A stretch of 64,000 nt of DNA from a virus (taxonomy: Duplodnaviria > Heunggongvirae > Uroviricota > Caudoviricetes). Below the pieces are notes generated by a model, which saw only the letters and a program-made list of their open reading frames with translations, did not search any database and had not been told where the DNA came from. The stretch is taken from the IMG/VR virus record IMGVR_UViG_2778261161_000002. One strand, given 5' to 3'. Made by a program: the position numbers and the translations under genes. Every line of letters begins with the position of its first letter. The stretch's first letter is position 1. Shown here in pieces: positions 14,801 to 36,505 of the stretch.

Positions 14801-17800
14801 AGAACTCACAGCAAGCTGTCTTTAATGCTGTGGAAATGGGGCGTCTTGACCTGGCGTCTGGCAAACACCGTGATGCACAGAAGAAGAACAAGATTAAGGA
14901 TCAGGCCGCGAATACCGGTACAACGAAGAAGCAGAATATCCCGTACTTTGAGGATATGAACTTCGATAGCGTGATTGCCGACGAGGGGCATAACTACCGC
15001 AACTCCTTTAATGCCGGGCGTGAAGCGGGACAACTGGCATATTTGCCTAACCCGGCAGTATCCAAGATGGCCCGCGACATGGCTGTAAAAGCTGCGTACA
15101 TGATGAAACGCAACAACGGACGTGGTGTAGTCATGCTGACGGCAACTCCGCTGGTGAACAGTCCGATTGATGCCTTCAACATGCTGTCTACTGTCATTCC
15201 GCAGGAAGAGTGGATGCGCATGGGCATCATTACGCCTGATGATTTCGTTCGTGTGTTTGGCAAAACAGCCACAGTTCAGGTCCAGAAAATTTCCGGGGAA
15301 GTGGAAGAGAAGCAGGGGCTGGTGGGCTTCCAGAACCTTGATGGCCTGCGTGGTATTTTCCATCGTTGGACCACTCTGAAGACTGCCGCAGATGTCGGAG
15401 CGACGGTTAAAATTCCCGACATCATCGAGAACACCTTGCAGATCCCGATGACAGGGGAGCAGGAGTCTGCTTATGAAGAACTTCGTAAGCGTGCTCAGGA
15501 GTTAAGTCGCAATGATGAGCTGACAGTCGATGAAAACGGGCATATCACTAACGACAAACCGGATGATTTCATCTTCTCCATCATCCGTGACATGGACAAG
15601 GTTGCTATAGACCCGGATCTGTATGCCAGTGCGATTACATTCCAGTTCCCCGTTGAGCTTGCAGACCAGGTAAAAGCTATTGCTGATGCCTTGCCAAAAG
15701 TAGCTGGTGGTAAAGTGGCAGATGATGTTGATGAGGCCGAGGAAGACGGCGCTGGCGGGCTGGTCAGTACGCGTACCAGCAAGGTAGTGAAGACCGCTTT
15801 TAGTGAACATCCGACGCATGTTGAAATACGTGCCAGCATTGAACTGGAAGCTGAAATACTGAAGGCCATTGCGGCTGCCGGTATTGATATGCAGCAGGTA
15901 TCGCACCCCATCCCGCCGAAGTATGCCGCGCTGATCGAAAATCTTCGTGAAGGTCTGAAGAACGGTAAGCAGATCGTCTTTATTGATGAAAAAGCCCAGC
16001 ACCAGAAGCTGCGCCGTATTATCGCCAGTGCACTGCAAATGCCGGAGCAGGAGATTGGCATTATCAATGCGACGACAGTTAGCCAGGCTGGCGGCATCAA
16101 GCTGAAGAAGGTGAATAAGCCGACCGAACCTACTCCAAACAAAAACGGTGAATACAAAGAAGGGGCATGGGAAACCTACTACAGCAAACTTGCCCAATAT
16201 GAGGATTATCTCTCAGCTAAAAATGATGCTGGCCTTGAGGGCATGGAAGGTATTGCCGCCGACTATAACGAAGGTCGCACGCGCATCATAATCTGTAACA
16301 AGAAGGCTGAAGTAGGTATTAACCTGCACATCGGGACAACCGATATCCACCACCTGACACTACCCTGGACACCAGCCAGTATCGACCAACGAAATGGGCG
16401 CGGTGCGCGCATAGGTTCACCGCAAGAGAAGGTCAATGTTCACTACTATTGTGGCAAAGGCACATTCGACGACTTCCGTCTGGATACGCTGAAACGTAAG
16501 AAAGACTGGATCAAGATGGTGATGACCTCCGACATGTCAGAGATCGCCAATGGTGATGTGGATGATGCTGATGAACGCGCCATTATGCTGGCGGCAAACC
16601 CGGAAGAACGCCGCGCAATCATGGCTCGCCAGGCGCAAGAGCGTGAAGAACGTCTGAAACTGAAAGCACAGCGCGAGGCCAACAATGCTCTCGATATCTA
16701 CCTGAAAGCGGCAAACGCCGCCGGAAAAGATATCGGCATGATGGAGACAGAACTGAAAAGCGCGATGGAACAGATAGAGTATTACCAGCGCAATCTTGAC
16801 GACCTGATAAAAGCGGGTACGAACAGGAATGGGCAAAAATACGCGCTTGAGCAGTTGAGTAGCTACAGAAAACGTGCGCGGGTGCTGCGGTTTGCGATCA
16901 CCAGGGCAAAAGACGCGGATACCATAATGAAACGCTCTCGTGGTGATGTGGAGCGCGCTATTAAGTCTGGTGTGCTGGATATCAGTATCGATGTTATTCA
17001 GAACCCACAGGAATATATGCGCACTGACAAGAATATCCTGTTGCATAAAGGTAGTTATTACCGTGCAGTCATTGATGATCGCGAAACAACAGCGATTGTC
17101 CGGGTGGAAAAAATTGACGGTGAAAAAGCACAATACATCTGTCGTATCGCCTGGCTGGATAGAGCAAGTCGTTACGCTCGATCACCGGGGTCAATCGTTA
17201 CATTGCCGTTTGACTCTGTGATTGAAGCGGTAACTTTTGAAGAGGGGGTTGCTGAATCGCGCGCAACGGCTGCGCGTGGTGTTCAGTGCCACCAGCTATC
17301 AACAATACTTACTCGCGATCAGTTCTATGATGCTATTCGCAATGGGGTAATGAATGTTATTGCTGGTAAACCTGGTAATGCATGGGGCGGTGGATCAGCT
17401 ATTAAATACTGGGCATATCGCACAGAAGATGGTCAGATCGCGCTGTCATCGGCCTATGATGGCGTGATAGGCCAAAAAATCGGGCGAGCATCGGATATAG
17501 CACCTGAACGATGGATATATCCTGATGGCAACGACGAGGCGCTGAAGCGTGAAGTGGCAAAAATACAAGCCAGTGATAACCCGCTGAATATCGTGGACGG
17601 AGAGGGATTCCTCCAGGCATTGTATGGGTATGATTACATCCAGGGAATGCAGGCATGGGGCGCACAGGCAACGATGGATGATGTTGCCAAGGAGTTCGAA
17701 AACTGGATGGCTGGGCGTGGTCTGTCAGGTCGTTCGCTTAATAAAGTCACTTCTGAAGATATTCTTAGCTTGTTCCGTAAACCGTCCGGAGAAGGTCTGG

Positions 17801-24972: not shown

Positions 24973-25548
24973 ATGTTAATGGCGAACGATAACGCATATG
25001 CAGAAGAAGATCTCATTTTGAGTGACTTCATAGGGAAGCGGGAACGCTGGACCCAAAAGCGAGAGGAACTTTACGCCTCATTAGTTCGCAAAGGCGTCAA
25101 TATCGAAACCGCACAGAGCGGCGATATGACAGTGGTAAGCGTTGGATTGCACGGTGTAAGCGTGTCAGCAATCAATCATGAGCCATACGTTGCGTTATCC
25201 GAGTCAATGGTAAGGTTAGTTAAGTTCCTGAAGTACACAGAAGCGAATAATGTAATCATTGGCAAAAAGAATATCCCTTTTTCCTCGGCTTTTTACTGGA
25301 TGATGAAAGGGCTTGATGCCCGGCGGACATCATGGCCTAAAGGGAGCTATATATCGATGTTCCGTGGCAGCATTGGCAGCAAAGAAAAGCTCTTCGAATT
25401 CTTGCCGGAAGAGGCATTCGATATTGTGGAAGGGTGCGATGTGATGGTGATGCCTCGCCTGGTAATGATGAATGGGGATTTACAGGCGCAGACAGACTGG
25501 TTTGCAACTGGTGTGGATATTATCGCGACTGACTGGGAGGCTTTCTGA
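24973..25548 (+). CDS. DUF2829 (Tad2-like) domain protein with N-terminal extension, 191 aa
   Basis: C-terminal half FYWMMKGLDARRTSWPKGSYIS ... WFATGVDIIATDWEAF matches DUF2829 pattern. Confidence 0.5.
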   Translation: MLMANDNAYAEEDLILSDFIGKRERWTQKREELYASLVRKGVNIETAQSGDMTVVSVGLHGVSVSAINHEPYVALSESMVRLVKFLKYTEANNVIIGKKNIPFSSAFYWMMKGLDARRTSWPKGSYISMFRGSIGSKEKLFEFLPEEAFDIVEGCDVMVMPRLVMMNGDLQAQTDWFATGVDIIATDWEAF

Positions 25549-25940
25549 TGTACGGGACTACCAAATTAAGCACTCAACAGGCCACCAATATGGAGTGGTC
25601 TATCGCTAACTGTAAGATCGTGTCATGCAATGTCACGCGTACTGATGTGGGCCATAAAAGCACTATAACAGGCTATCTAGTAATGACCACCAGGGGGATG
25701 AGGGTTAGATTTCGCTGGAAAGCAGAGCAAGTAACGCCATTCAGAGAGCCATCAATGCCGCTGCAGGTTGAGCAGGATTATCTATGTTTACCAGAAATAG
25801 ATGGAGGAATGCTGGTGGAGTCTGATGGTAGTAAGGCTGATTTTGAAGCCAATTTGAAGCTGGCACAGGCCGTAATCAATAGTTATCGCGGAAAGTGGAT
25901 CGCAAAAGTGAAACATGTTGTTCGTTTGTCTCGCTGGTAG
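25548..25940 (+). CDS. Hypothetical protein, 130 aa
   Basis: ORF track; ATGA coupling. Confidence 0.45.
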   Translation: MYGTTKLSTQQATNMEWSIANCKIVSCNVTRTDVGHKSTITGYLVMTTRGMRVRFRWKAEQVTPFREPSMPLQVEQDYLCLPEIDGGMLVESDGSKADFEANLKLAQAVINSYRGKWIAKVKHVVRLSRW

Positions 25941-26048: not shown

Positions 26049-26441
26049 ATGGAACAAATCAGCAGCGCAGAAATTGCGGATATCATGATCAGGGCTGACT
26101 GCTATCTGACAGTCACTGAAATTACCACTCTCGCCAAAGAAAAATACCCTCATCTCCATGTTTCACGAGTAAGTGTAACTAACATCATTCGTCATTTTGT
26201 TCGTTCAAGCAGGGCAATCTGTGAGCTGGATGATCGTGTGTATCCACGAAAATACTGGCTACATGGTCTGAACGGATATCAGTTCAAGGTGCGCGGGCGC
26301 ACGCCTGAATACGGTAGCTTACTGGTTAAAAACTGTAGCAGGAAATCAGTCGAACAGGCGCGAAAAGAGCAACGAGAGCTGGTGGACATGGCGAATAAGC
26401 TGTGGAATGCCGCCGTTAAAAAGCGTGGTGTTGCTTTATGA
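26049..26441 (+). CDS. Hypothetical protein upstream of pacA (Lpa-like position), 130 aa
   Basis: ORF track; position immediately upstream of terminase genes. Confidence 0.4.
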   Translation: MEQISSAEIADIMIRADCYLTVTEITTLAKEKYPHLHVSRVSVTNIIRHFVRSSRAICELDDRVYPRKYWLHGLNGYQFKVRGRTPEYGSLLVKNCSRKSVEQARKEQRELVDMANKLWNAAVKKRGVAL

Positions 26442-29337: not shown

Positions 29338-30375
29338 TTACCAGAGCTTCGCGGCGTACTGCGTTTGGGGGAATGTGTATCCGTAACGTTCTTCGATTGC
29401 TTTGCCGTATTTTTTACGAGCTTCATTCAGTTTAATGCCGGTCAGGTCGTCTCCAGAGGCCATCATTACGTCTAACAATTCCAGATCCATTTTATCCAGC
29501 CTTGCCATTGCTTCACGTGATGTACGTATCTTACGTTCAATGATATGGCGAATAGCCGGATCGGCATCCTCCAGCATCTTAGCGGATTTCTGCTTAAGGC
29601 TTTCATTGCGAATATCGATGTTCCTTAAGATGTACGACTTCGCAACGTAGCTTGGCTGGTGTTTTTCCAGGTCACGAACACGATATAAGTTAAAATCGCC
29701 GAGAAGGCTGCAAGGTACCGATTCGACGCCAGAATAAATTGTAATGCTCCGGCGTTCACCAACATTATTGACAACGGGGATCGTTGTCTTCGGTAGTCTT
29801 GCGAAAACCAATGCGCCATGTGCGCCAACTCTAAAGCGAGAAAGGGCATTGCTGCCTTCGATGTTTGTTGTCAGCACAACATCTGTATATGCCTCTTTAC
29901 GCGCCCGGTAGATCTCGCCTTCAGGCTCAGCTTCAAAGAAGCGCTGTTCTTCTTCAAGAGCACCTACGATTTGAGAAAAAACCCTATTTTTCAGGCTTTT
30001 CTTTATGATTTTGTCGTATTTTTTTAGCAATTGTTCACGTGTAAATGTACGTGTTGTTGTAGCGCTTTGCACAACGACATGCGTGCTTTGATTGGTGTCC
30101 TCAATGATGAATGGGATCGGAGAATATACAGACTCAACAATGTTCGACGCTTTGCCGTCGGCATCGCGGCACATGTCAACGAAGGCTTTCCATTCAGCAA
30201 GACATTTTTCAGCTTCTTCTAATATGTTTTGGTCATGCGTTAATGCAACATGGCGGAATTCCTCGCCAGCATAACTGGTATCATGGAAAACAGAGTTTGC
30301 GACCACCAGCTCTTTCCACCGTTCAGCGGTTTGCAGGAACCGTTTGTACTCTTTCTCGATCGACTTCTTACTCAT
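29338..30375 (-). CDS. Putative C1-like immunity repressor, 345 aa
   Basis: Position between pacB and lox/cre as in P1; operator-like motif 20 bp upstream of its start; no family motif verified. Confidence 0.4.
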   Translation of the reverse strand: MSKKSIEKEYKRFLQTAERWKELVVANSVFHDTSYAGEEFRHVALTHDQNILEEAEKCLAEWKAFVDMCRDADGKASNIVESVYSPIPFIIEDTNQSTHVVVQSATTTRTFTREQLLKKYDKIIKKSLKNRVFSQIVGALEEEQRFFEAEPEGEIYRARKEAYTDVVLTTNIEGSNALSRFRVGAHGALVFARLPKTTIPVVNNVGERRSITIYSGVESVPCSLLGDFNLYRVRDLEKHQPSYVAKSYILRNIDIRNESLKQKSAKMLEDADPAIRHIIERKIRTSREAMARLDKMDLELLDVMMASGDDLTGIKLNEARKKYGKAIEERYGYTFPQTQYAAKLW

Positions 30376-30394
30376 TATTCCTACTCGATTTAGT

Positions 30395-30403
30395 TTTCTA
30401 ACA
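30395..30403 (+). promoter_or_regulatory. Operator-like motif (copy 8) at promoter of repressor-like gene
   Basis: agtTTTCTAACAtaaaatt; partial second copy TTTTAGAAAA at 30477..30488. Confidence 0.5.
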
Positions 30404-30584
30404 TAAAATTACTATGACAAATTTATGTCGAATAACAGAGTGAGTAAAGGATCGAACTGTGATTTTTTGTCATCAATTTTAGAAAACCAACCGTAGAAAC
30501 CACACTTCGCAAATTAAAGACCATGAAGGCAACGTGTTACTGGTCATCATCAATCTATGATGGATTTAAAAAAATCGGCATTTT

Positions 30585-30618
30585 ATAACTTTAAATAATT
30601 GGCATTATTTAAAGTTAG
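30585..30618 (+). other. lox-like recombination site: ATAACTTTAAATA-ATTGGCAT-TATTTAAAGTTAG
   Basis: 13-bp inverted arms (12 of 13 complementary) around an 8-bp asymmetric spacer; outer arm ATAACTT identical to loxP; about 150 bp upstream of Cre homolog. Confidence 0.7.
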
Positions 30619-30626
30619 GCTATAAT
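30599..30626 (+). promoter_or_regulatory. Sigma70-like promoter TTGGCA-N16-TATAAT overlapping the lox-like site
   Basis: -35 TTGGCA 30599..30604 lies in the lox spacer; -10 TATAAT 30621..30626; reads toward cre homolog. Confidence 0.45.
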
Positions 30627-30769
30627 CATGTGTAGATGAACAGTGTTGACATCACTGAAAATACGTGCCTCGAATCAAAGGCTTGTATTTTGAAAATTAA
30701 CTTATAGCTACCCTGTCATTTTTATATTTTTCGCGTAGCGTCATCTGTATATAGAGGTGTAATAGTTTC

Positions 30770-31798
30770 ATGAGTGAATTAATTATCTCTGGCAGTTCCG
30801 GTGGTTTTCTGCGCAACATTGGCAAAGAGTACCAGGAAGCCGCAGAAAACTTTATGCGGTTCATGAATGACCAGGGGGCTTATGCGCCGAATACTCTGCG
30901 CGACCTCCGGTTGGTGTTTCATTCCTGGGCGCGCTGGTGTCACGCTCGCCAGCTTGCCTGGTTTCCGATCTCACCAGAAATGGCCCGCGAGTATTTTCTT
31001 CAGCTGCATGATGCCGATCTGGCTTCGACCACCATTGATAAGCACTACGCCATGCTGAACATGCTGCTTTCGCATTGTGGCCTTCCGCCACTTTCGGATG
31101 ATAAAAGTGTTTCTCTGGCTATGCGGCGCATCCGGCGCGAAGCGGCAACTGAAAAAGGCGAACGAACAGGCCAGGCTATACCGCTTCGGTGGGACGATCT
31201 GAAACTGCTCGACGTCCTGTTGTCCAGGTCAGAACGGCTGGTGGACCTGCGCAACCTGGCTTTTCTCTTTGTTGCATACAATACGCTGATGCGTATGTCG
31301 GAAATATCGCGTATTCGTGTAGGTGATCTGGACCAAACAGGTGACACTGTCACGCTACATATTTCACACACGAAGACAATAACGACCGCCGCCGGGCTTG
31401 ATAAGGTGCTTTCCCGTCGCACTACCGCTGTGCTGAATGACTGGCTGGATGTTTCCGGGCTTCGCGAGCATCCTGACGCTGTGCTGTTCCCGCCGATACA
31501 CCGTAGCAATAAGGCCAGGATCACGATAACGCCCCTTACTGCACCTGCAATGGAGAAAATATTCAGCGACGCCTGGGTGTTGCTGAATAAAAGAGATGCT
31601 ACGCCAAACAAAGGAAGATACCGGACGTGGACCGGGCATAGTGCACGCGTCGGGGCCGCTATTGATATGGCTGAAAAGCAGGTGTCTATGGTGGAGATCA
31701 TGCAGGAAGGAACCTGGAAGAAACCGGAAACACTTATGCGGTATCTTCGCCGTGGCGGCGTGTCTGTGGGGGCTAATAGCCGCCTGATGGATTTGTAA
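30770..31798 (+). CDS. cre: Cre-like tyrosine recombinase, 342 aa
   Basis: Blocks WFPISPEMAREYFLQL, NMLLSHCGLPPLSDDKSVSLAMRRIRRE, IRNLAFLFVAYNTLMRMSEISRIRVGDL, WTGHSARVGAAIDMA, LMRYLRR align with P1 Cre including catalytic R, H, R, W, Y. Confidence 0.85.
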   Translation: MSELIISGSSGGFLRNIGKEYQEAAENFMRFMNDQGAYAPNTLRDLRLVFHSWARWCHARQLAWFPISPEMAREYFLQLHDADLASTTIDKHYAMLNMLLSHCGLPPLSDDKSVSLAMRRIRREAATEKGERTGQAIPLRWDDLKLLDVLLSRSERLVDLRNLAFLFVAYNTLMRMSEISRIRVGDLDQTGDTVTLHISHTKTITTAAGLDKVLSRRTTAVLNDWLDVSGLREHPDAVLFPPIHRSNKARITITPLTAPAMEKIFSDAWVLLNKRDATPNKGRYRTWTGHSARVGAAIDMAEKQVSMVEIMQEGTWKKPETLMRYLRRGGVSVGANSRLMDL

Positions 31799-31804
31799 AT
31801 TAAA

Positions 31805-31813
31805 TTTCTAACA
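31805..31813 (+). promoter_or_regulatory. Operator-like motif (copy 9)
   Basis: aaaTTTCTAACAcatct just after cre stop. Confidence 0.45.
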
Positions 31814-31871
31814 CATCTTTTTAGATTAACATCTTTGCTGTAAAGTACCCTCGCCTATTTAGGAGGGTGCT

Positions 31872-32216
31872 TTGCAGAGTCAAATCACGGAATCAAGACG
31901 CTTCAAGGTGGATGGTTACACCGTAACCTTCGCCGCTGGTGTTAAGAACAGTCATGCTGTCGTTGTGTTCGGCATCATGACCGGGCTTGAGGCCGTCCCT
32001 GTGTTTACCCTCGAAAAAAACTGGCGAAATCTGGAGGAAGCAGAAAGCTACGTCCGGAAAGTAACCATCATTGCCGCCGAAAAACTCCTGGCCCACTATC
32101 AGGAAAATTATCGCACTATGGTCGAGAAGATTAATCTCGCTTTCACTCGCCCCACTACCGGCTTTATTGCACCGGATACTAATGCAGGTCGATATCCTGC
32201 AAGGGGGCGTCGGTGA
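31872..32216 (+). CDS. Hypothetical protein, 114 aa (cra-like position)
   Basis: ORF track; RBS GGAGGG. Confidence 0.45.
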   Translation: MQSQITESRRFKVDGYTVTFAAGVKNSHAVVVFGIMTGLEAVPVFTLEKNWRNLEEAESYVRKVTIIAAEKLLAHYQENYRTMVEKINLAFTRPTTGFIAPDTNAGRYPARGRR

Positions 32217-32689
32217 AAACTTATTACCCATCTCTGAATTGTTACCCGTCTTCCTATCCAGAATTATCCGGGAAGCTGTTAGCTCTATTAGCTAAAGCAC
32301 CTACGGAATGGTTTAAGCCAGTCGTTATCAATCCACACTTCCTGGATTACGGAACTGTTCGCACTCGTAACGAACTCAAAAACCTACTGGCGCATGGATT
32401 CATTCGACACCGTGCCGGGAAAGGCTATCAGTTAGCGATTGCGCCAGAAGAGGCCGTGCGGCTATTCGCATATCGTGACAGCCAGACAAAAGCTCGGGTA
32501 ATAGCTCAAATACTTCATAACGGCAGCACCTATGCCCGCCAGTTTGGCGGCGACACGTCGCAGTTCTTGCGGGCGGTGCGATCGCTGGAGGAGCAAGGAG
32601 TTATTGAAAGTTCCTGTCTTCCTGTTCCTACCGTTCCACATATCAAACGTCGGGTTTACACCTTCACGCAGAGAGCTAAAAAACAATGA
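32213..32689 (+). CDS. Hypothetical protein, 158 aa
   Basis: ORF track. Confidence 0.45.
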   Translation: MKTYYPSLNCYPSSYPELSGKLLALLAKAPTEWFKPVVINPHFLDYGTVRTRNELKNLLAHGFIRHRAGKGYQLAIAPEEAVRLFAYRDSQTKARVIAQILHNGSTYARQFGGDTSQFLRAVRSLEEQGVIESSCLPVPTVPHIKRRVYTFTQRAKKQ

Positions 32690-33180
32690 TTTACGTAAAA
32701 GTGAAACGCCTACATCCGGCAGCAAAACTTCCAGCTTATGCCACCTCCGGATCGGCGGCGATGGATTTTGAGGCTGTTGAAATAAAACCATGCGTCGATA
32801 GCAATGGTGCAATTTCCTCAAGCTGGTGGGTGTACACCGGACTGGCTATGGAGATCCCGCCCGGCTGGTGTCTGAAACTCTATCCGCGCTCCGGATTGGG
32901 CTGCAAAAAACATACTCGCCTGGCTAACTGCGTAGGAATTATCGACTCCGATTATCGCGGTGAAATCATGGCAAAACTGATTACTGATCCCGGCGGGGAA
33001 GGCGTTTGTCTCAAGCCTGGAATGGCTGTCATGCAAGGCATTTTTGAGCGTGTTGAACAAGTCTCACTAGTCGAGGTTGAGGAACTCAACGAAACGGAAC
33101 GTGGTGCTGGTGGCTTTGGTAGCACATCGGAAGACCACTTTGAAATCAAGCGCACACCGCTTCAGTACGCAAAGTTTTAA
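32686..33180 (+). CDS. dut: dUTP diphosphatase (dUTPase)
   Basis: Motifs SGSAAMDF, PRSGLG, GIIDSDYRGEI, ERGAGGFGSTSE. Confidence 0.85.
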   Translation: MIYVKVKRLHPAAKLPAYATSGSAAMDFEAVEIKPCVDSNGAISSSWWVYTGLAMEIPPGWCLKLYPRSGLGCKKHTRLANCVGIIDSDYRGEIMAKLITDPGGEGVCLKPGMAVMQGIFERVEQVSLVEVEELNETERGAGGFGSTSEDHFEIKRTPLQYAKF

Positions 33181-33194
33181 GCAGAGGAAAGGCT

Positions 33195-33896
33195 ATGAAT
33201 TACATGACAACGAAAGAGCTTTTTAAGTTCCTTCCCAAATACAAAGCTCACAAAAACGTTAGTGCATCGAAAATCAAAAATGTTGTTATTTTCGGAGTAA
33301 CTGCTTCCCCACTTTGGGGCTGCATCGAACTCGTTGAACCAAAAGGGGCAACAGTTTGTGTTGACGCAATTTTTTTACAAAAACACCGACCAAAAACTGG
33401 CGGGTATCTGATCGTTTATGAAAACGGTTATCTGTTCTATGCCCCGGAGAAACCATTTGAGCAATGCTATGGCCTGGTTAACGACGCCTCCGAAAATGGG
33501 GTATCGCTCAGCATTGAAGGTCACAATGGGGTGACATTCATTACAGCCAGGGACGTAACTATTTCTGCTGGCGGTATCGCTACTCTACAAGAAGAAATCG
33601 ACCTTGAAGCAGCCGACTTTTCTGACGCGCTGATGTGGCTGAAGGATGGCAAGAAAGTTGCTCGACGCGGGTGGAACGGCGAAAACCAATTCTGCTGGCT
33701 GGTTCCTGACAAACAGGGTGCTTCAAGACTAACCCCTATAAAACATGCCGCAAACGGAGAGCTTGAAATCAATTTCGACTCTCCTCTTGCTCCTTATGGT
33801 GCGCATTTCGTTTTGAAAAATGCACAAGGTGTAGTTGTTCCATGGATGCCTTCTGTAGGTGACCTGCTGGCATGTGACTGGTTTGTAGTGGAGTGA
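33195..33896 (+). CDS. DUF2829 (Tad2-like) domain protein with N-terminal extension, 233 aa
   Basis: C-terminal LMWLKDGKKVARRGWNGENQFCWL ... VVVPWMPSVGDLLACDWFVVE matches DUF2829. Confidence 0.6.
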   Translation: MNYMTTKELFKFLPKYKAHKNVSASKIKNVVIFGVTASPLWGCIELVEPKGATVCVDAIFLQKHRPKTGGYLIVYENGYLFYAPEKPFEQCYGLVNDASENGVSLSIEGHNGVTFITARDVTISAGGIATLQEEIDLEAADFSDALMWLKDGKKVARRGWNGENQFCWLVPDKQGASRLTPIKHAANGELEINFDSPLAPYGAHFVLKNAQGVVVPWMPSVGDLLACDWFVVE

Positions 33897-33902
33897 TTTA
33901 AC

Positions 33903-34709
33903 GTGGAAAATACTAAAGCAATTCAATACCGCTTGCGTAATGGCCTGCTGGTGGCTGTTAACGCCGACATGTCACTGCCGTTTGACACGATTGAACGCAC
34001 CATAATGACGTATCTCGGCTTTAATGAAGAACTGAATGAAGAGCATGGCGTAGCTATATGGAGTGATGCAGACAGCGGCGTTCGTCGTTACATCACCGCC
34101 AGGGGCAAAGACTACTCTCTGGAAGAACTGTTTGCCCTTGCGCAGTCTTTCGAATGTGTAGCATTAGACCTGTTTAATGATCCTGCTATAGCGCAACGAC
34201 TTATACGCGAGCTTGGGCTATCCGTTACACCAATTATCTTTAAAAATGGCAGCCTGACTGGCACATGGCGCGTAGAACGCATATCAAACTACCTTCCATA
34301 TAACCGACAGTTAAATGGAGTAATCTCCGGCGTTAATCAGCCCGTAGCATGTGAAAATGTAAACCTGGTTGTCGCTGTTTTGGCAACCGCATGTCGTGTT
34401 ATCGGTTTGGCTAAACAGGCATTTATTCATTTCCCAAATGGTGCAGAAGGTAGCGCAGAGATTATCGCGTGTGATTTCGAATTTACCTGGATGCTACGCG
34501 AATATCTGGACCAAACAGTATTCCGTGCCGAAGAACTGGATATGTATATCACGTCAACGATTCCAGACGATGTGCGAGCTGAAGCAATCGCTACAGCCAG
34601 GGCGAAATGCCGTGCGGCGATTGCAGAACAGGCCAAAGAAGAACAGTCCGATGAAGTCGCGGCAGATGTGGAGGCAGAGGTAGCGGAGGATGCTGATGCT
34701 GACGCCTAA
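33903..34709 (+). CDS. Hypothetical protein with acidic C-terminal tail (PacA-like position in paralogous module)
   Basis: Ends EEQSDEVAADVEAEVAEDADADA; overlaps downstream ATPase-like ORF. Confidence 0.45.
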   Translation: MENTKAIQYRLRNGLLVAVNADMSLPFDTIERTIMTYLGFNEELNEEHGVAIWSDADSGVRRYITARGKDYSLEELFALAQSFECVALDLFNDPAIAQRLIRELGLSVTPIIFKNGSLTGTWRVERISNYLPYNRQLNGVISGVNQPVACENVNLVVAVLATACRVIGLAKQAFIHFPNGAEGSAEIIACDFEFTWMLREYLDQTVFRAEELDMYITSTIPDDVRAEAIATARAKCRAAIAEQAKEEQSDEVAADVEAEVAEDADADA

Positions 34710-35796
34710 AAACATCACCGAATTACCAGAGTGGAGAGAGCTGGTAAGCAAATATAGCCATGACTGGGCATTAGCAGCAGAAGAGTTGATGGGTGTTAAG
34801 TTAACCCACCAGCAAAAGCTAATTGTTGAGGCGATTCAACAAAAAGGTTCAGCAGTCAGCGTCACCACTCCTGAAGGGATAGGCCAAAAGACGGTTATCG
34901 CTATAATTAGTATTCTTTATACAATCCTGATGCCTGAGTCTAAAACGGTTATTGTTTCCCCAAAGTTCTATAATTGTCGCAGGCAAGTTATCCAATACAT
35001 AAGTACGTATTGGGATAGAGTCAGTAACAGAATCCCATTGCTGGGAGAATATTTTAAAGTCGATGGAAACGGCATCAATCATCGTTACCGGGAATATTGG
35101 GGCTGCGAAATTAAGCCATATCACCGAAATTATGAGGAAGGTTTCGGTGGATATTATGCTGAACATCTTTTAATCATTGTTACGGAGGCGGCTCTTGCTG
35201 GCGATCGGCTATTCAGCATGTTAAGAGCATCGTTAGTAAGTGACGATTCACGTATACTTTTAATGTCCGCTCCTTCAGAGGAGGAGCATGGACACTTTTA
35301 CGATTCCCATCATGGTCGTGCTAAATCAGAAGAAAATCCATGTGGTATTTATACAGCCATCAAGCTGAACGCAGAAGATACCCCCATTATTTCTCAAGGT
35401 TATCTTGATAACATTGCAGAAATATATGGTGGTAAAAACAGCGATTACTACCGTCGTATGATTCTTGGTGAGTTTCCTGGTATTAGGGAGGCTGTTCTTG
35501 AATCAGATATGCCGAAGACAATGCGCTTTTCGATGCCTGATGGTAGTGAATGGATAATGCCATTACGAGTGATAGCCCGGCATCATGCACAGCACCACGC
35601 CAAAAAACATGGCGTTACAACATTGGAGTGGTTGAAATCGCACACCATTCCACTCTTCACTGCAGATCACAATGCTATCGTTGAGTGGGCAAAAACAATT
35701 CCGTGGGAGAATGTTGCTGAATACGCCCACATGCTAAAACCGCCGAAAGACAGGCAAGAAATTAGCTGGCTGACAGCAGAAAAAATCATTGAGTGA
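34690..35796 (+). CDS. Terminase-ATPase-like paralog of PacB N-terminal domain, 368 aa, degenerate Walker A
   Basis: HQQKLIVEAIQQKGSAVSVTTPEGIGQKT vs PacB HQQQQIIQSVQETGSRTTVTSGHGTGKSS; GHFYDSHHGRAKS vs GYFYDSHHSQAKT; no C-terminal nuclease region. Confidence 0.55.
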   Translation: MLMLTPKNITELPEWRELVSKYSHDWALAAEELMGVKLTHQQKLIVEAIQQKGSAVSVTTPEGIGQKTVIAIISILYTILMPESKTVIVSPKFYNCRRQVIQYISTYWDRVSNRIPLLGEYFKVDGNGINHRYREYWGCEIKPYHRNYEEGFGGYYAEHLLIIVTEAALAGDRLFSMLRASLVSDDSRILLMSAPSEEEHGHFYDSHHGRAKSEENPCGIYTAIKLNAEDTPIISQGYLDNIAEIYGGKNSDYYRRMILGEFPGIREAVLESDMPKTMRFSMPDGSEWIMPLRVIARHHAQHHAKKHGVTTLEWLKSHTIPLFTADHNAIVEWAKTIPWENVAEYAHMLKPPKDRQEISWLTAEKIIE

Positions 35797-35803
35797 TAGT
35801 AGG

Positions 35804-35829
35804 AAGCCCGCCTGGTTGAGCGGGCTTCT
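35804..35829. terminator. Bidirectional terminator GAAGCCCGC-ctggttga-GCGGGCTTC
   Basis: Hairpin with T-run; between convergent genes. Confidence 0.7.
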
Positions 35830-35831
35830 TT

Positions 35832-36212
35832 TCAAATATTGGAACCATATAGTTCACGTAGTTTTTCCGCTACTGAAGATACGGGGATTTCACCAGTTGC
35901 AGCCCCCACCGCAAGTTCCACCAGCACGGGAGAATCATATACCTGTATACCGTTACGGCGTAGAAATAGCAGCGCACTGTTTAGCGCGGTACGCTTATTG
36001 GCATCATTGAATATATGCCCTCTCGCAGTAGCCACCAGGTAGGTTGCGGAGACTTCGAAAAGGTCGGTGATCTCTTCGTAGGCAACTCTGGCCTGAACTC
36101 TCCCGATAATGGCCTCTGCCCTACCCGGATCTGACATTCCCGGCAGGCCGCCGTAGCGGCTTATATTCGCATCATGAAGCGCAATAAGTTCTTCCGGTGA
36201 TATATGCCTCAT
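35832..36212 (-). CDS. doc: Doc toxin (death on curing, Fic/Doc family)
   Basis: [88 protein letters not shown], near-identical to P1 Doc from memory. Confidence 0.9.
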
Positions 36213-36433
36213 TATCGGTTAACCAGTTCCTTGTTGGTGGAGTCCAGGGTGTCAAACAGGGATGCAAATTCAGCATCCAGCGCCGCCTTTTTGTAGGCTT
36301 CGAAAGTAGCCTTGCTGACAATTACTGCTGGTTCACGGCCTCTGCGGGTGATTTCAACCTCTTCCCCGGCTTCAACATTGTTGAGCAATTCAGAAAGGTT
36401 GCCGCGCGCGGTACGGAAGTTAATGGACTGCAT
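36212..36433 (-). CDS. phd: Phd antitoxin (prevents host death)
   Basis: [73 protein letters not shown]; start taken at second Met; overlaps doc start. Confidence 0.9.
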
Positions 36434-36505
36434 AAACACCTCGTGTACTCGTTATGTGTACACAATCATAAACTTCACAGGCATAAAGCACCAGCACTTT
36501 GCAGC

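Follow-up and report, generated by a model that had tools for sequence, protein, structure and literature searches.

A Tad2-like domain joined to a Dec-like OB-fold: a candidate two-module anti-defence protein of a D6/P1-type phage-plasmid

Introduction

Why would a phage-plasmid carry a protein in which a Tad2-like domain is joined to a long N-terminal part of another kind, and what might such a protein do for it? The question is raised by the complete open reading frame (ORF) at 33195..33896 (+ strand; 233 amino acids (aa), ATG start, stop codon at 33894-33896) of virus record IMGVR_UViG_2778261161_000002, whose analysed stretch of 64,000 nucleotides, hereafter the window, is a D6/P1-type phage-plasmid of Escherichia coli. 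In order from the N to the C terminus, the protein comprises an OB-fold like that of the phage L protein Dec, a linker and the Tad2-like (DUF2829) domain. The explanation that we favor, and to which we give a somewhat better than even chance, is that of a two-module anti-defence protein, in which a Tad2 sponge for an ADP-ribose (ADPR)-derived signal of the TIR/Thoeris type is accompanied by an accessory OB module.

One half of this protein is not new. It is 100% identical to an NCBI protein cluster of E. coli (P0001) named “DUF2829 domain-containing protein”; the label is thus already present there, and in its core the gene is an ordinary member of a known anti-defence family. According to surveys, “AcrIIA7/Tad2” is the most common anti-defence match in phage-plasmids, so a further phage-plasmid Tad2 gene would be expected on its own. 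What had gone unrecognised is the N-terminal part, which is identified here as a Dec-like OB-fold followed by a beta-rich linker and which belongs to a phage protein family that keeps close company with known sponges.

Results

A Tad2-family domain and its predicted pocket

The C-terminal domain (aa 141-233; 33615..33893, + strand) matches the Pfam-A family PF11195 (“Tad2-like”) over aa 141-232 and profile positions 2-73 of 73, with an E-value of 2.7e-21 and 76.3 bits against a family cut-off of 25 bits. An earlier, sequence-only reading of the locus had placed a DUF2829 domain here and had staked the claim upon such a profile search; the match lies far beyond chance, and both of the peptides quoted in that reading are present in the translation. 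When the PDB sequences were searched with phmmer, the significant matches were exclusively Tad2-family chains, namely ModTad2 (9eib, E 1.6e-12), SptTad2 (8wjd, 5.8e-9), HgmTad2 (8kbi, 2e-7), SPO1 Tad2 (8sme, 4.5e-7) and AcrIIA7 (9kzr, 4.5e-7), with 8v3e matched as well. Identity to the solved Tad2 proteins amounts to 36% for ModTad2, 34% for both SptTad2 and SPO1 Tad2, and 31% for HgmTad2, while the majority allele of related plasmids is 44% identical to ModTad2. Both globular parts are confident in an AlphaFold2 model of the full-length monomer (44 homologs; mean predicted local distance difference test score (pLDDT) 73). The predicted Tad2 elements are helices at aa 142-150 and 221-225 and strands at aa 154-157, 166-170, 204-208, 214-216 and 229-232, which together give the Tad2 fold, an N-terminal helix on an antiparallel sheet followed by a C-terminal short helix and strand. 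A Foldseek search of the PDB with the full model returned Tad2 structures at ranks 1-24, with target-normalised TM-scores of 0.61-0.85; rank 25 was phage L Dec, and there was no other significant match. A different name, “MW1434 family type I toxin-antitoxin toxin”, is attached by NCBI to a homolog on one plasmid, but it found no NCBIfam match at E<=0.1.

The pocket of the family is known from two structures. SPO1 Tad2 contacts glycocyclic ADPR (gcADPR) through W25, N26, W73, S76 and D79 (10.1101/2023.05.01.538930) and HgmTad2 through W21, N22, G23, W87, S90 and D93 (PMC10680739). HMMER alignments match these known contacts to W160, N161 and G162 of the window protein, which form its GWNG motif (codons 33672..33680, + strand; SPO1 W25/N26, HgmTad2 W21/N22/G23), and to W217, S220 and D223 (codons 33843..33863, + strand; SPO1 W73, S76 and D79, HgmTad2 W87, S90 and D93). 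W160, W217, S220 and D223 are invariant in the 44 homologs. Judged from its sequence and predicted fold, the C-terminal domain belongs genuinely to the Tad2 family, and its ADPR-type pocket is apparently intact.

Between the early and late Tad2 beta strands lies an allele-specific insertion (aa ~171-203; 33705..33803, + strand), which at 30-odd residues is about as long as the one behind the cyclic dinucleotide (CDN) pocket of HgmTad2 and which falls where HgmTad2 and ModTad2 form a second (CDN/cyclic UMP (cUMP)) pocket. The HgmTad2 CDN contacts R31, P32, D34, L36, K46, S47, F70 and N85 correspond to V, P, K, G, K, H, Y and a gap, respectively, in an alignment that is unreliable at this place. 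A cyclic di-GMP (c-di-GMP) pocket like that of HgmTad2 was considered and obtained no support from the aligned residues. The long insertion may form a second pocket or abolish it.

A survey of 120 cluster representatives retrieved with the window protein revealed three versions of the Tad2 pocket/insertion region on one N-terminal scaffold among P1/D6-like elements. Allele A, the rarer version carried by the window, combines the long insertion with GWNG (9 clusters); allele B is ModTad2-like and likewise has GWNG (33 clusters, including those with hundreds of members); allele C has a short insertion, and its GWNG is changed to EWKG, which replaces the phosphate-binding Asn by Lys (21 clusters). 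Variation that is centred on the ligand-facing parts would fit specificity retargeting. The EWKG version with its short insertion is common in related plasmids (P0006-P0019, P0043-P0052 and others) and could represent either a retargeted or an inactivated pocket.

A Dec-like OB-fold and a beta-rich linker

The sequence-only reading had regarded the first ~140 residues as unrelated to Tad2 and fused to it, and Pfam gives no match over aa 1-140. It had also suggested structure prediction as a means to find a second binding site in this part; the prediction did yield a fold, namely an OB-fold, while a pocket is more than a monomer model can show. When aa 1-100 were modelled separately (24 homologs), the pLDDT was 88.3 and the chain formed a small barrel in the order beta0, beta1-3, helix, beta4-5, helix. 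This OB-fold domain (aa ~12-97; 33228..33485, + strand) is homologous to the OB-fold of phage L Dec, which provided the one significant sequence match of the N-domain profile in the PDB (6E3C, E 1.8e-4) and which has the motif PEVGGYL...AFE..Y in common with it. A profile of aa 1-138 is collinear with Dec residues 35-119, including TARTITLTGAVTGSAS. The similarity thereby extends into the linker (aa 98-140; 33486..33614, + strand), a beta-rich segment of low confidence (pLDDT <50 at aa 98-106 and 119-137) that is collinear with the start of the trimeric spike segment of Dec: its ~40 residues align to Dec 90-119 over a short stretch and with low confidence, after which Tad2 takes the place of the remaining spike. 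Among more distant homologs, the linker is variable or swapped for other inserts.

Several recognised sponges were also considered as identities for the N-domain. Lockin was rejected because the termini of LockinA-C, as deduced from published primers, do not match, whereas Sequestin and TadIV-1 were rejected because both are helical. The N-domain belongs to none of the sponge families recognised as of April 2026, which are Tad1, Tad2, Acb2, Acb4, Sequestin, Lockin and TadIV-1. Within the literature library searched, no paper brings an OB-fold together with sponges that act on Thoeris.

The OB family keeps company with sponges

At E<=1e-3, an exhaustive HMMER search with aa 1-102 recovered 1,696 representatives of clusters formed at 50% identity. 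Lengths of 85-160 aa prevail among the best 150, and in longer proteins the OB domain may lie at either end; the family consists mostly of stand-alone, uncharacterised phage proteins of ~90 aa. Its near-invariant residues (CHK..V.A.KI and KH.P..GGY.V.YEDGY.S.SP..FE.GY) are not conserved in Dec. Pfam had no match over the OB domain itself in any of 145 representatives. Their Pfam partners were Acb4 (PF13876) and Tad2, four times each, Sequestin (PF21825) three times and an Acb2/Tad1 hairpin once; DUF4406, DUF5662, RyR, AlpA and DUF551 were each found once, and two further matches were marginal. The equation of PF13876 with Acb4 and of PF21825 with Sequestin follows published work (PMC11722364, PMC12265669). 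Sequestin was itself discovered through its fusion to Tad2 and Acb4 (PMC12265669), and since the OB domain has no Pfam model, a Pfam-based fusion screen could not have detected it.

An independent sample of 80 IMG/VR loci, collected with stand-alone OB members as query and with crude ORF calls, gave a comparable picture, and in both samples sponges made up the greater part of the partners known to Pfam. Among 25 longer OB-containing ORFs, the fused domain was Tad2 in three, Sequestin in two, and Acb4 and DUF4406 in one each. The 101 immediately flanking co-directional ORFs included four of Acb2/Tad1 and one of Acb4, and no capsid, portal or terminase gene was found among them. Altogether, a known sponge is fused or next door in about 11 of the 80 loci. 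Each of the sponge families has only a few thousand members in phage protein sets of tens of millions, and by this rough comparison the association would be a very large enrichment.

The architecture of the window protein recurs elsewhere. Gp55 of Klebsiella phage SopranoGao has the same OB plus Tad2 arrangement and adjoins transcriptional regulator genes, a setting which we read as an early region, and the distant homologs P0078 and P0090 combine OB, Tad2 and Sequestin. Other variants were also encountered. P0062, P0084 and P0087 have a small conserved domain between OB and Tad2 (...WRKKPV.IEA.Q...GDWII.G..GE.YPCKPDIF..TYEPA), which is another unannotated module with no Pfam match at E<0.01. 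In P0027 (306 aa), the first ~24 residues are swapped for ~100 aa from the N-terminus of a tail fibre (PF03406, Phage_fiber_2), with the junction inside the OB domain; this protein could be a recombinant or an assembly chimera.

A second, anciently diverged Tad2-like gene

The sequence-only reading had also spoken of two diverged copies in one element, the one studied here being the clearer. This agrees with what we observe, as copy 1 (24973..25548, + strand; 191 aa) matches PF11195 over aa 103-190 with 39.1 bits (E 1.1e-9), as opposed to the 76.3 bits of copy 2, and the two have no BLASTP similarity to one another. Searches with phmmer of the window's six-frame ORFs, for which either domain of copy 2 (Tad2 or N-terminal) or its full-length sequence served as query, found no paralog; copy 1 was detected by Pfam and by the family hidden Markov model (HMM) of this analysis (E 1.1e-5) only. 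It is located upstream of lpa (26049-26441) and pacA/pacB and is labelled merely hypothetical in RefSeq. Its N-terminal ~100 aa are a sequence of its own, unrelated to that of copy 2 and without a Pfam match. At the pocket it has W121, P122, W176, T179 and D182, such that both Trp residues and the Asp are kept, while Asn is changed to Pro and Ser to Thr. By these comparisons, the element does hold two Tad2 genes of ancient divergence, and it is plausible that they differ in ligand specificity, as had been proposed.

The gene in its apparent operon and in related elements

The 2.2 kb round the gene are 100% identical in plasmids CP057047.1 and NZ_CP127300.1, whereas phage D6 is 96.6% identical over the aligned 77% of the same region. 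The adjoining gene is indeed a dUTPase gene (32686..33180, + strand; PF00692 E 1.7e-14, PHROG 135 E 1.8e-61), as the sequence-only reading had stated; it ends 14 nucleotides 5' of the Tad2 ORF in the same apparent operon, and a Shine-Dalgarno-like GAGGAAAGG (33184..33192, + strand; read from the sequence) stops 2 nucleotides short of the ATG. Seven + strand genes up to 35796 are tightly packed or overlapping. Consensus scans placed a sigma-70-like promoter match, TTGGCA-16-TATAAT (11/12; 30599..30626, + strand), 5' of a Cre-like recombinase gene and a terminator-like hairpin (35810..35825, + strand) just past the last gene of the unit. The former is the sole such match on the + strand within 30300-36300 and is the putative promoter of the seven-gene unit. 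The Tad2 ORF thus appears to share a transcript with dut and the Cre-like recombinase gene, driven by a sigma-70-type promoter. No match to the P1 C1 operator consensus with <=3 mismatches was found across the window, and consequently C1 control could not be inferred.

The operon is flanked by the Cre-like tyrosine recombinase gene (30770-31798, + strand), labelled “similar to P1 gene cre” and accompanied by a rox site in D6, whose product we take to match Dre recombinase, and on its other side by a doc/phd toxin-antitoxin pair (35832-36439, - strand). Downstream of the Tad2 ORF are a P1 isaA homolog (33903-34709, + strand; PHROG 2326) and a gene for a 368-aa protein (34690-35796, + strand; PHROG 5902) that weakly resembles the ATPases of terminase large subunits (PHROG 2, E 1.6e-10); both genes may be additional cargo of this accessory operon. 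The Tad2 ORF itself was also considered as the “isaA” of P1, which is ruled out because the isaA homolog is the downstream gene. In the window, a 1.1-kb gene stands in place of the pdcA-like gene of D6. Upstream of dut, the gene at 32213-32689 (+ strand) encodes a 158-aa protein of PHROG 6669 with a marginal PADLOC match to a CARF model (E 0.024); this match is probably due to chance, but would be of interest beside a signal sponge if it were real.

Orthologs of the P1/D6 type, namely D6 orf114, SJ46 J46_0048, RCS47 “part 1/part 2” and Ro157c2YLVW, occupy the same type of locus with 68-76% protein identity per domain; they carry allele B, whereas the window carries the rarer allele A. Phage D6 orf114 (L002 2594-3034) has an in-frame deletion of the OB core, with MNNMATKELFKFLPKYKAHK joined to KNGTTV..., which leaves the linker and Tad2 in a protein of 146 aa and is the reason why the match to D6 covers 77% of the query. 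The annotated start of SJ46 J46_0048 (L003 3854-4699) lies 56 codons too far upstream of the conserved start MNNMTTKELF, and the gene is directly upstream of isaA there as well. In RCS47 (FO818745), the gene is split into 15495-15896 and 25583-25813 by a ~10-kb insertion with flanking inverted repeats. P1 itself yielded no homolog of the OB module by tblastn. A dUTPase gene directly 5' of a Tad2 gene is also found in the unrelated Bacillus phages JL and Shanette (L007 1418-2288), and E. coli plasmids encode an in-frame dUTPase-Tad2 fusion (P0059, 241 aa) in which GAGG is joined to ITTQQEE. The fusion has lost the entire OB domain together with the end of the dUTPase, the GFGSTSEDH... tail, which we take to be catalytic motif V.

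Discussion

How the protein might act

The domain identities, the folds, the conserved pocket residues and the family associations described above are directly supported, and upon these a mechanism can be proposed. The Tad2 domain would assemble into the homotetramer of its family, whose protomer interfaces would bind and sequester an ADPR-derived signal from a TIR-domain (Thoeris-type) defence, such that the host effector stays inactive. Candidate ligands would be histidine-ADPR (His-ADPR), 3'cADPR (cyclic ADPR) or N7-cADPR, among which a His-ADPR specificity like that of ModTad2 would be our first guess. The OB-fold would presumably serve this anti-defence role as well and not decorate capsids; it might add a unit that binds ligand, or else act in oligomerisation or regulation. 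Co-transcription with the recombinase gene and dut would make the sponge available in the plasmid-prophage state and early after entry, and such timing suits a sponge, since it is needed before the signal accumulates.

A bolder proposal goes further with regard to the OB domain, and we offer it tentatively, as less likely than not. The OB family might represent a hitherto unrecognised kind of phage sponge for immune signals, or an anti-defence module of another class, with Dec as a capsid-binding offshoot; the window protein would then be a double anti-defence protein whose modules neutralise different signals.

A number of observations weigh against the two-module interpretation. Firstly, the sponge function of the window protein and its close relatives would follow from homology, and the specific ligand cannot be read from sequence. 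Secondly, the pocket is not preserved in every detail: SPO1 T78 (HgmTad2 T92) is G222 in the window protein, and other peripheral contacts differ too, as SPO1 H71 is Val and D67 is Gln; the insertion is unmodelled, with pLDDT <50 at aa 174-191 and 195-197. Thirdly, the N-domain is dispensable in nature, as seen from the OB-core deletion of D6 and from the dUTPase-Tad2 fusion, its sole characterised homolog is a capsid decoration protein, and the family motif YEDGYxSxSP has drifted to YENGYLFYAP in the lineage of the window. Lastly, the 233-aa protein had no match in PADLOC or, at E<=0.1, in NCBIfam, the promoter and terminator are consensus matches, and the ORF calls in the IMG/VR loci are crude.

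Other explanations

Among the alternatives, the one that fares best, unlikely as we consider it to be, is that the N-terminal module is not itself a binding unit but gates the Tad2 core as a regulatory or occluding “head”. It has a precedent in the 48-aa head of pdAcrIIA7, a DUF2829 protein that is inactive in vitro at full length and binds tracrRNA once its head is deleted, both forms being tetramers (PMC13133391). Moreover, natural variants without the N-domain retain an intact Tad2 domain. However, the AcrIIA7 head consists of two helices and is unrelated to an OB-fold. The OB domain is also mostly found by itself, and it has unrelated sponge folds among its fusion partners; both points speak for a function of its own and not for a gate specific to Tad2.

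It is quite unlikely, in our estimation, that the protein serves host physiology, with the plasmid-prophage sequestering a housekeeping messenger such as c-di-GMP and thereby altering the behaviour of the lysogen. HgmTad2 does bind c-di-GMP with an affinity in the picomolar range and co-purifies with it from E. coli (PMC10680739), the long insertion of the window protein lies in the region that forms this HgmTad2 pocket, and the putative promoter of the operon is sigma-70-like. Nevertheless, the residues by which HgmTad2 recognises guanine and phosphate (R31, D34, L36, S47 and N85) are aligned with V, K, G, H and a gap, within an insertion where alignment is unreliable, and the part that is conserved is the ADPR pocket.

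The resemblance to Dec suggests a third explanation, namely that the Dec-like OB-fold and a beta-helix-like linker bind the capsid as trimers and present Tad2 on the outside of the virion, where it might serve, for instance, as an adhesin for carbohydrates or small molecules; Dec itself decorates phages L and P22. Dec is the sole characterised homolog of aa 12-97, and the similarity continues collinearly into the start of its trimeric spike. In addition, homologs are labelled “capsid decoration protein” in some phage records, and one stand-alone homolog is encoded where a Dec gene would be, with the lysis genes on one side and the end of the genome on the other. The proteomics that reported no decoration protein covered virions of P1, which has no OB homolog by tblastn, and such data do not exclude one in D6-like phages. 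Despite this, we judge the explanation to be very unlikely for several reasons. The capsid contacts of Dec shown by mutagenesis, K30 and Y49, are V31 and C55 here and are family-variable positions. The gene is found in the Cre-like recombinase/dut unit before doc/phd and not in a head or late cluster, and phage D6 is viable with its OB core deleted. The neighbours and fusion partners of the family are sponges, with no capsid, portal or terminase genes. Furthermore, gp05, the stand-alone homolog of Ralstonia phage GP4, is absent from the 3.7 A head structure, in which only gp2 and gp1 are present. A cytoplasmic signal sponge, finally, has no obvious use outside the cell.

A last reading, that of an anti-CRISPR protein like AcrIIA7 with tracrRNA or some other guide RNA as its target, is highly improbable. 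E. coli and Salmonella carry type I CRISPR and are not known to carry type II (Cas9/tracrRNA), which counts against it. Even though AcrIIA7 (9kzr) is matched at E 4.5e-7 (an overall homology only) and binds tracrRNA (PMC13133391), and surveys label such phage-plasmid genes “AcrIIA7”, Li et al. saw no Cas9 inhibition by Tad2 homologs (PMC10680739) and the nearest relatives are Thoeris sponges, not AcrIIA7.

Significance

The OB family of the window protein may be of wider interest. It has no Pfam model, and its members are joined to, or encoded beside, sponges of four families, which makes it a candidate anti-defence module that is cheap to test; the candidacy is a concrete one because Sequestin was found by the same guilt-by-fusion logic. 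The family link also reframes the origin of phage L Dec, and the three Tad2 alleles on one scaffold offer a natural specificity series for studying how sponges are retargeted. D6/P1-type elements are common in clinical and livestock E. coli, and the anti-defence genes that they bring along influence which other phages, therapeutic phages among them, can infect a lysogen.

Comparison with known systems

When the window protein is compared to characterised systems, its closest counterpart is ModTad2 from a Myroides odoratus prophage (9EIB with His-ADPR, 8V3E apo), which is its best match in the PDB both by sequence and by Foldseek. The two are 36% identical over 97 columns, have the motifs GWNG and W-PS-xD-LA-DW in common, and belong to a family that works by forming homotetramers which sequester the signals of TIR proteins. 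The ligands of ModTad2 are His-ADPR and cUMP, both of which it sequesters, and members of the Tad2 family counter CBASS and Pycsar as well as Thoeris I, II and IV (PMC12393519). However, ModTad2 is a stand-alone protein of 89 aa, whereas the window protein has a ~140-aa N-terminal extension and an insertion that is ~9 residues longer. SPO1 Tad2 (gp34.65; 8SME/8SMF/8SMG) is similar in that its five gcADPR contacts are conserved and its target-normalised TM-score reaches 0.85, but it is 34% identical, has a short insertion and lacks an extra domain. HgmTad2/AcrIIA7 and SptTad2 (8KBI-8KBM, 8WJC, 8WJD, 9KZR) resemble the window protein in their DUF2829 core with a long insertion between core strands, yet the CDN-contacting residues of HgmTad2 appear mostly not to be conserved in it. 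The pdAcrIIA7 protein demonstrates that an N-terminal appendage on the Tad2 fold is compatible with tetramers (PMC13133391), although that appendage is a two-helix head and not an OB-fold, and tracrRNA binding is irrelevant to an E. coli host. The pdAcrIIA7 protein is further marked by a basic groove with the conserved residues K58, K66, K71, K93 and R101.

For the N-terminal module, the counterpart is Dec (6E3C). Both have an OB-fold with the same order of elements (beta0, beta1-3, alphaOB, beta4-5, alpha2) and 30% identity over 81 aligned residues, and in both a beta-rich segment follows the OB-fold. The differences are equally clear, as the family-invariant YEDGY is SQYGE in Dec, the capsid-contact residues of Dec are not conserved in the window protein, and Dec is encoded by a late, head-cluster gene as a protein of 134 aa without a Tad2 domain. 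For the arrangement as a whole, the nearest parallels are the natural sponge-sponge fusions (Tal et al. 2025, PMC12265669), which include Acb4-Tad2 of Pasteurella phage Pm86, Tad2-Sequestin and Sequestin-Acb4. The partner domain of the window protein differs from those in belonging to no established sponge family, but in it, as in them, Tad2 is joined to another small, mostly stand-alone phage domain.

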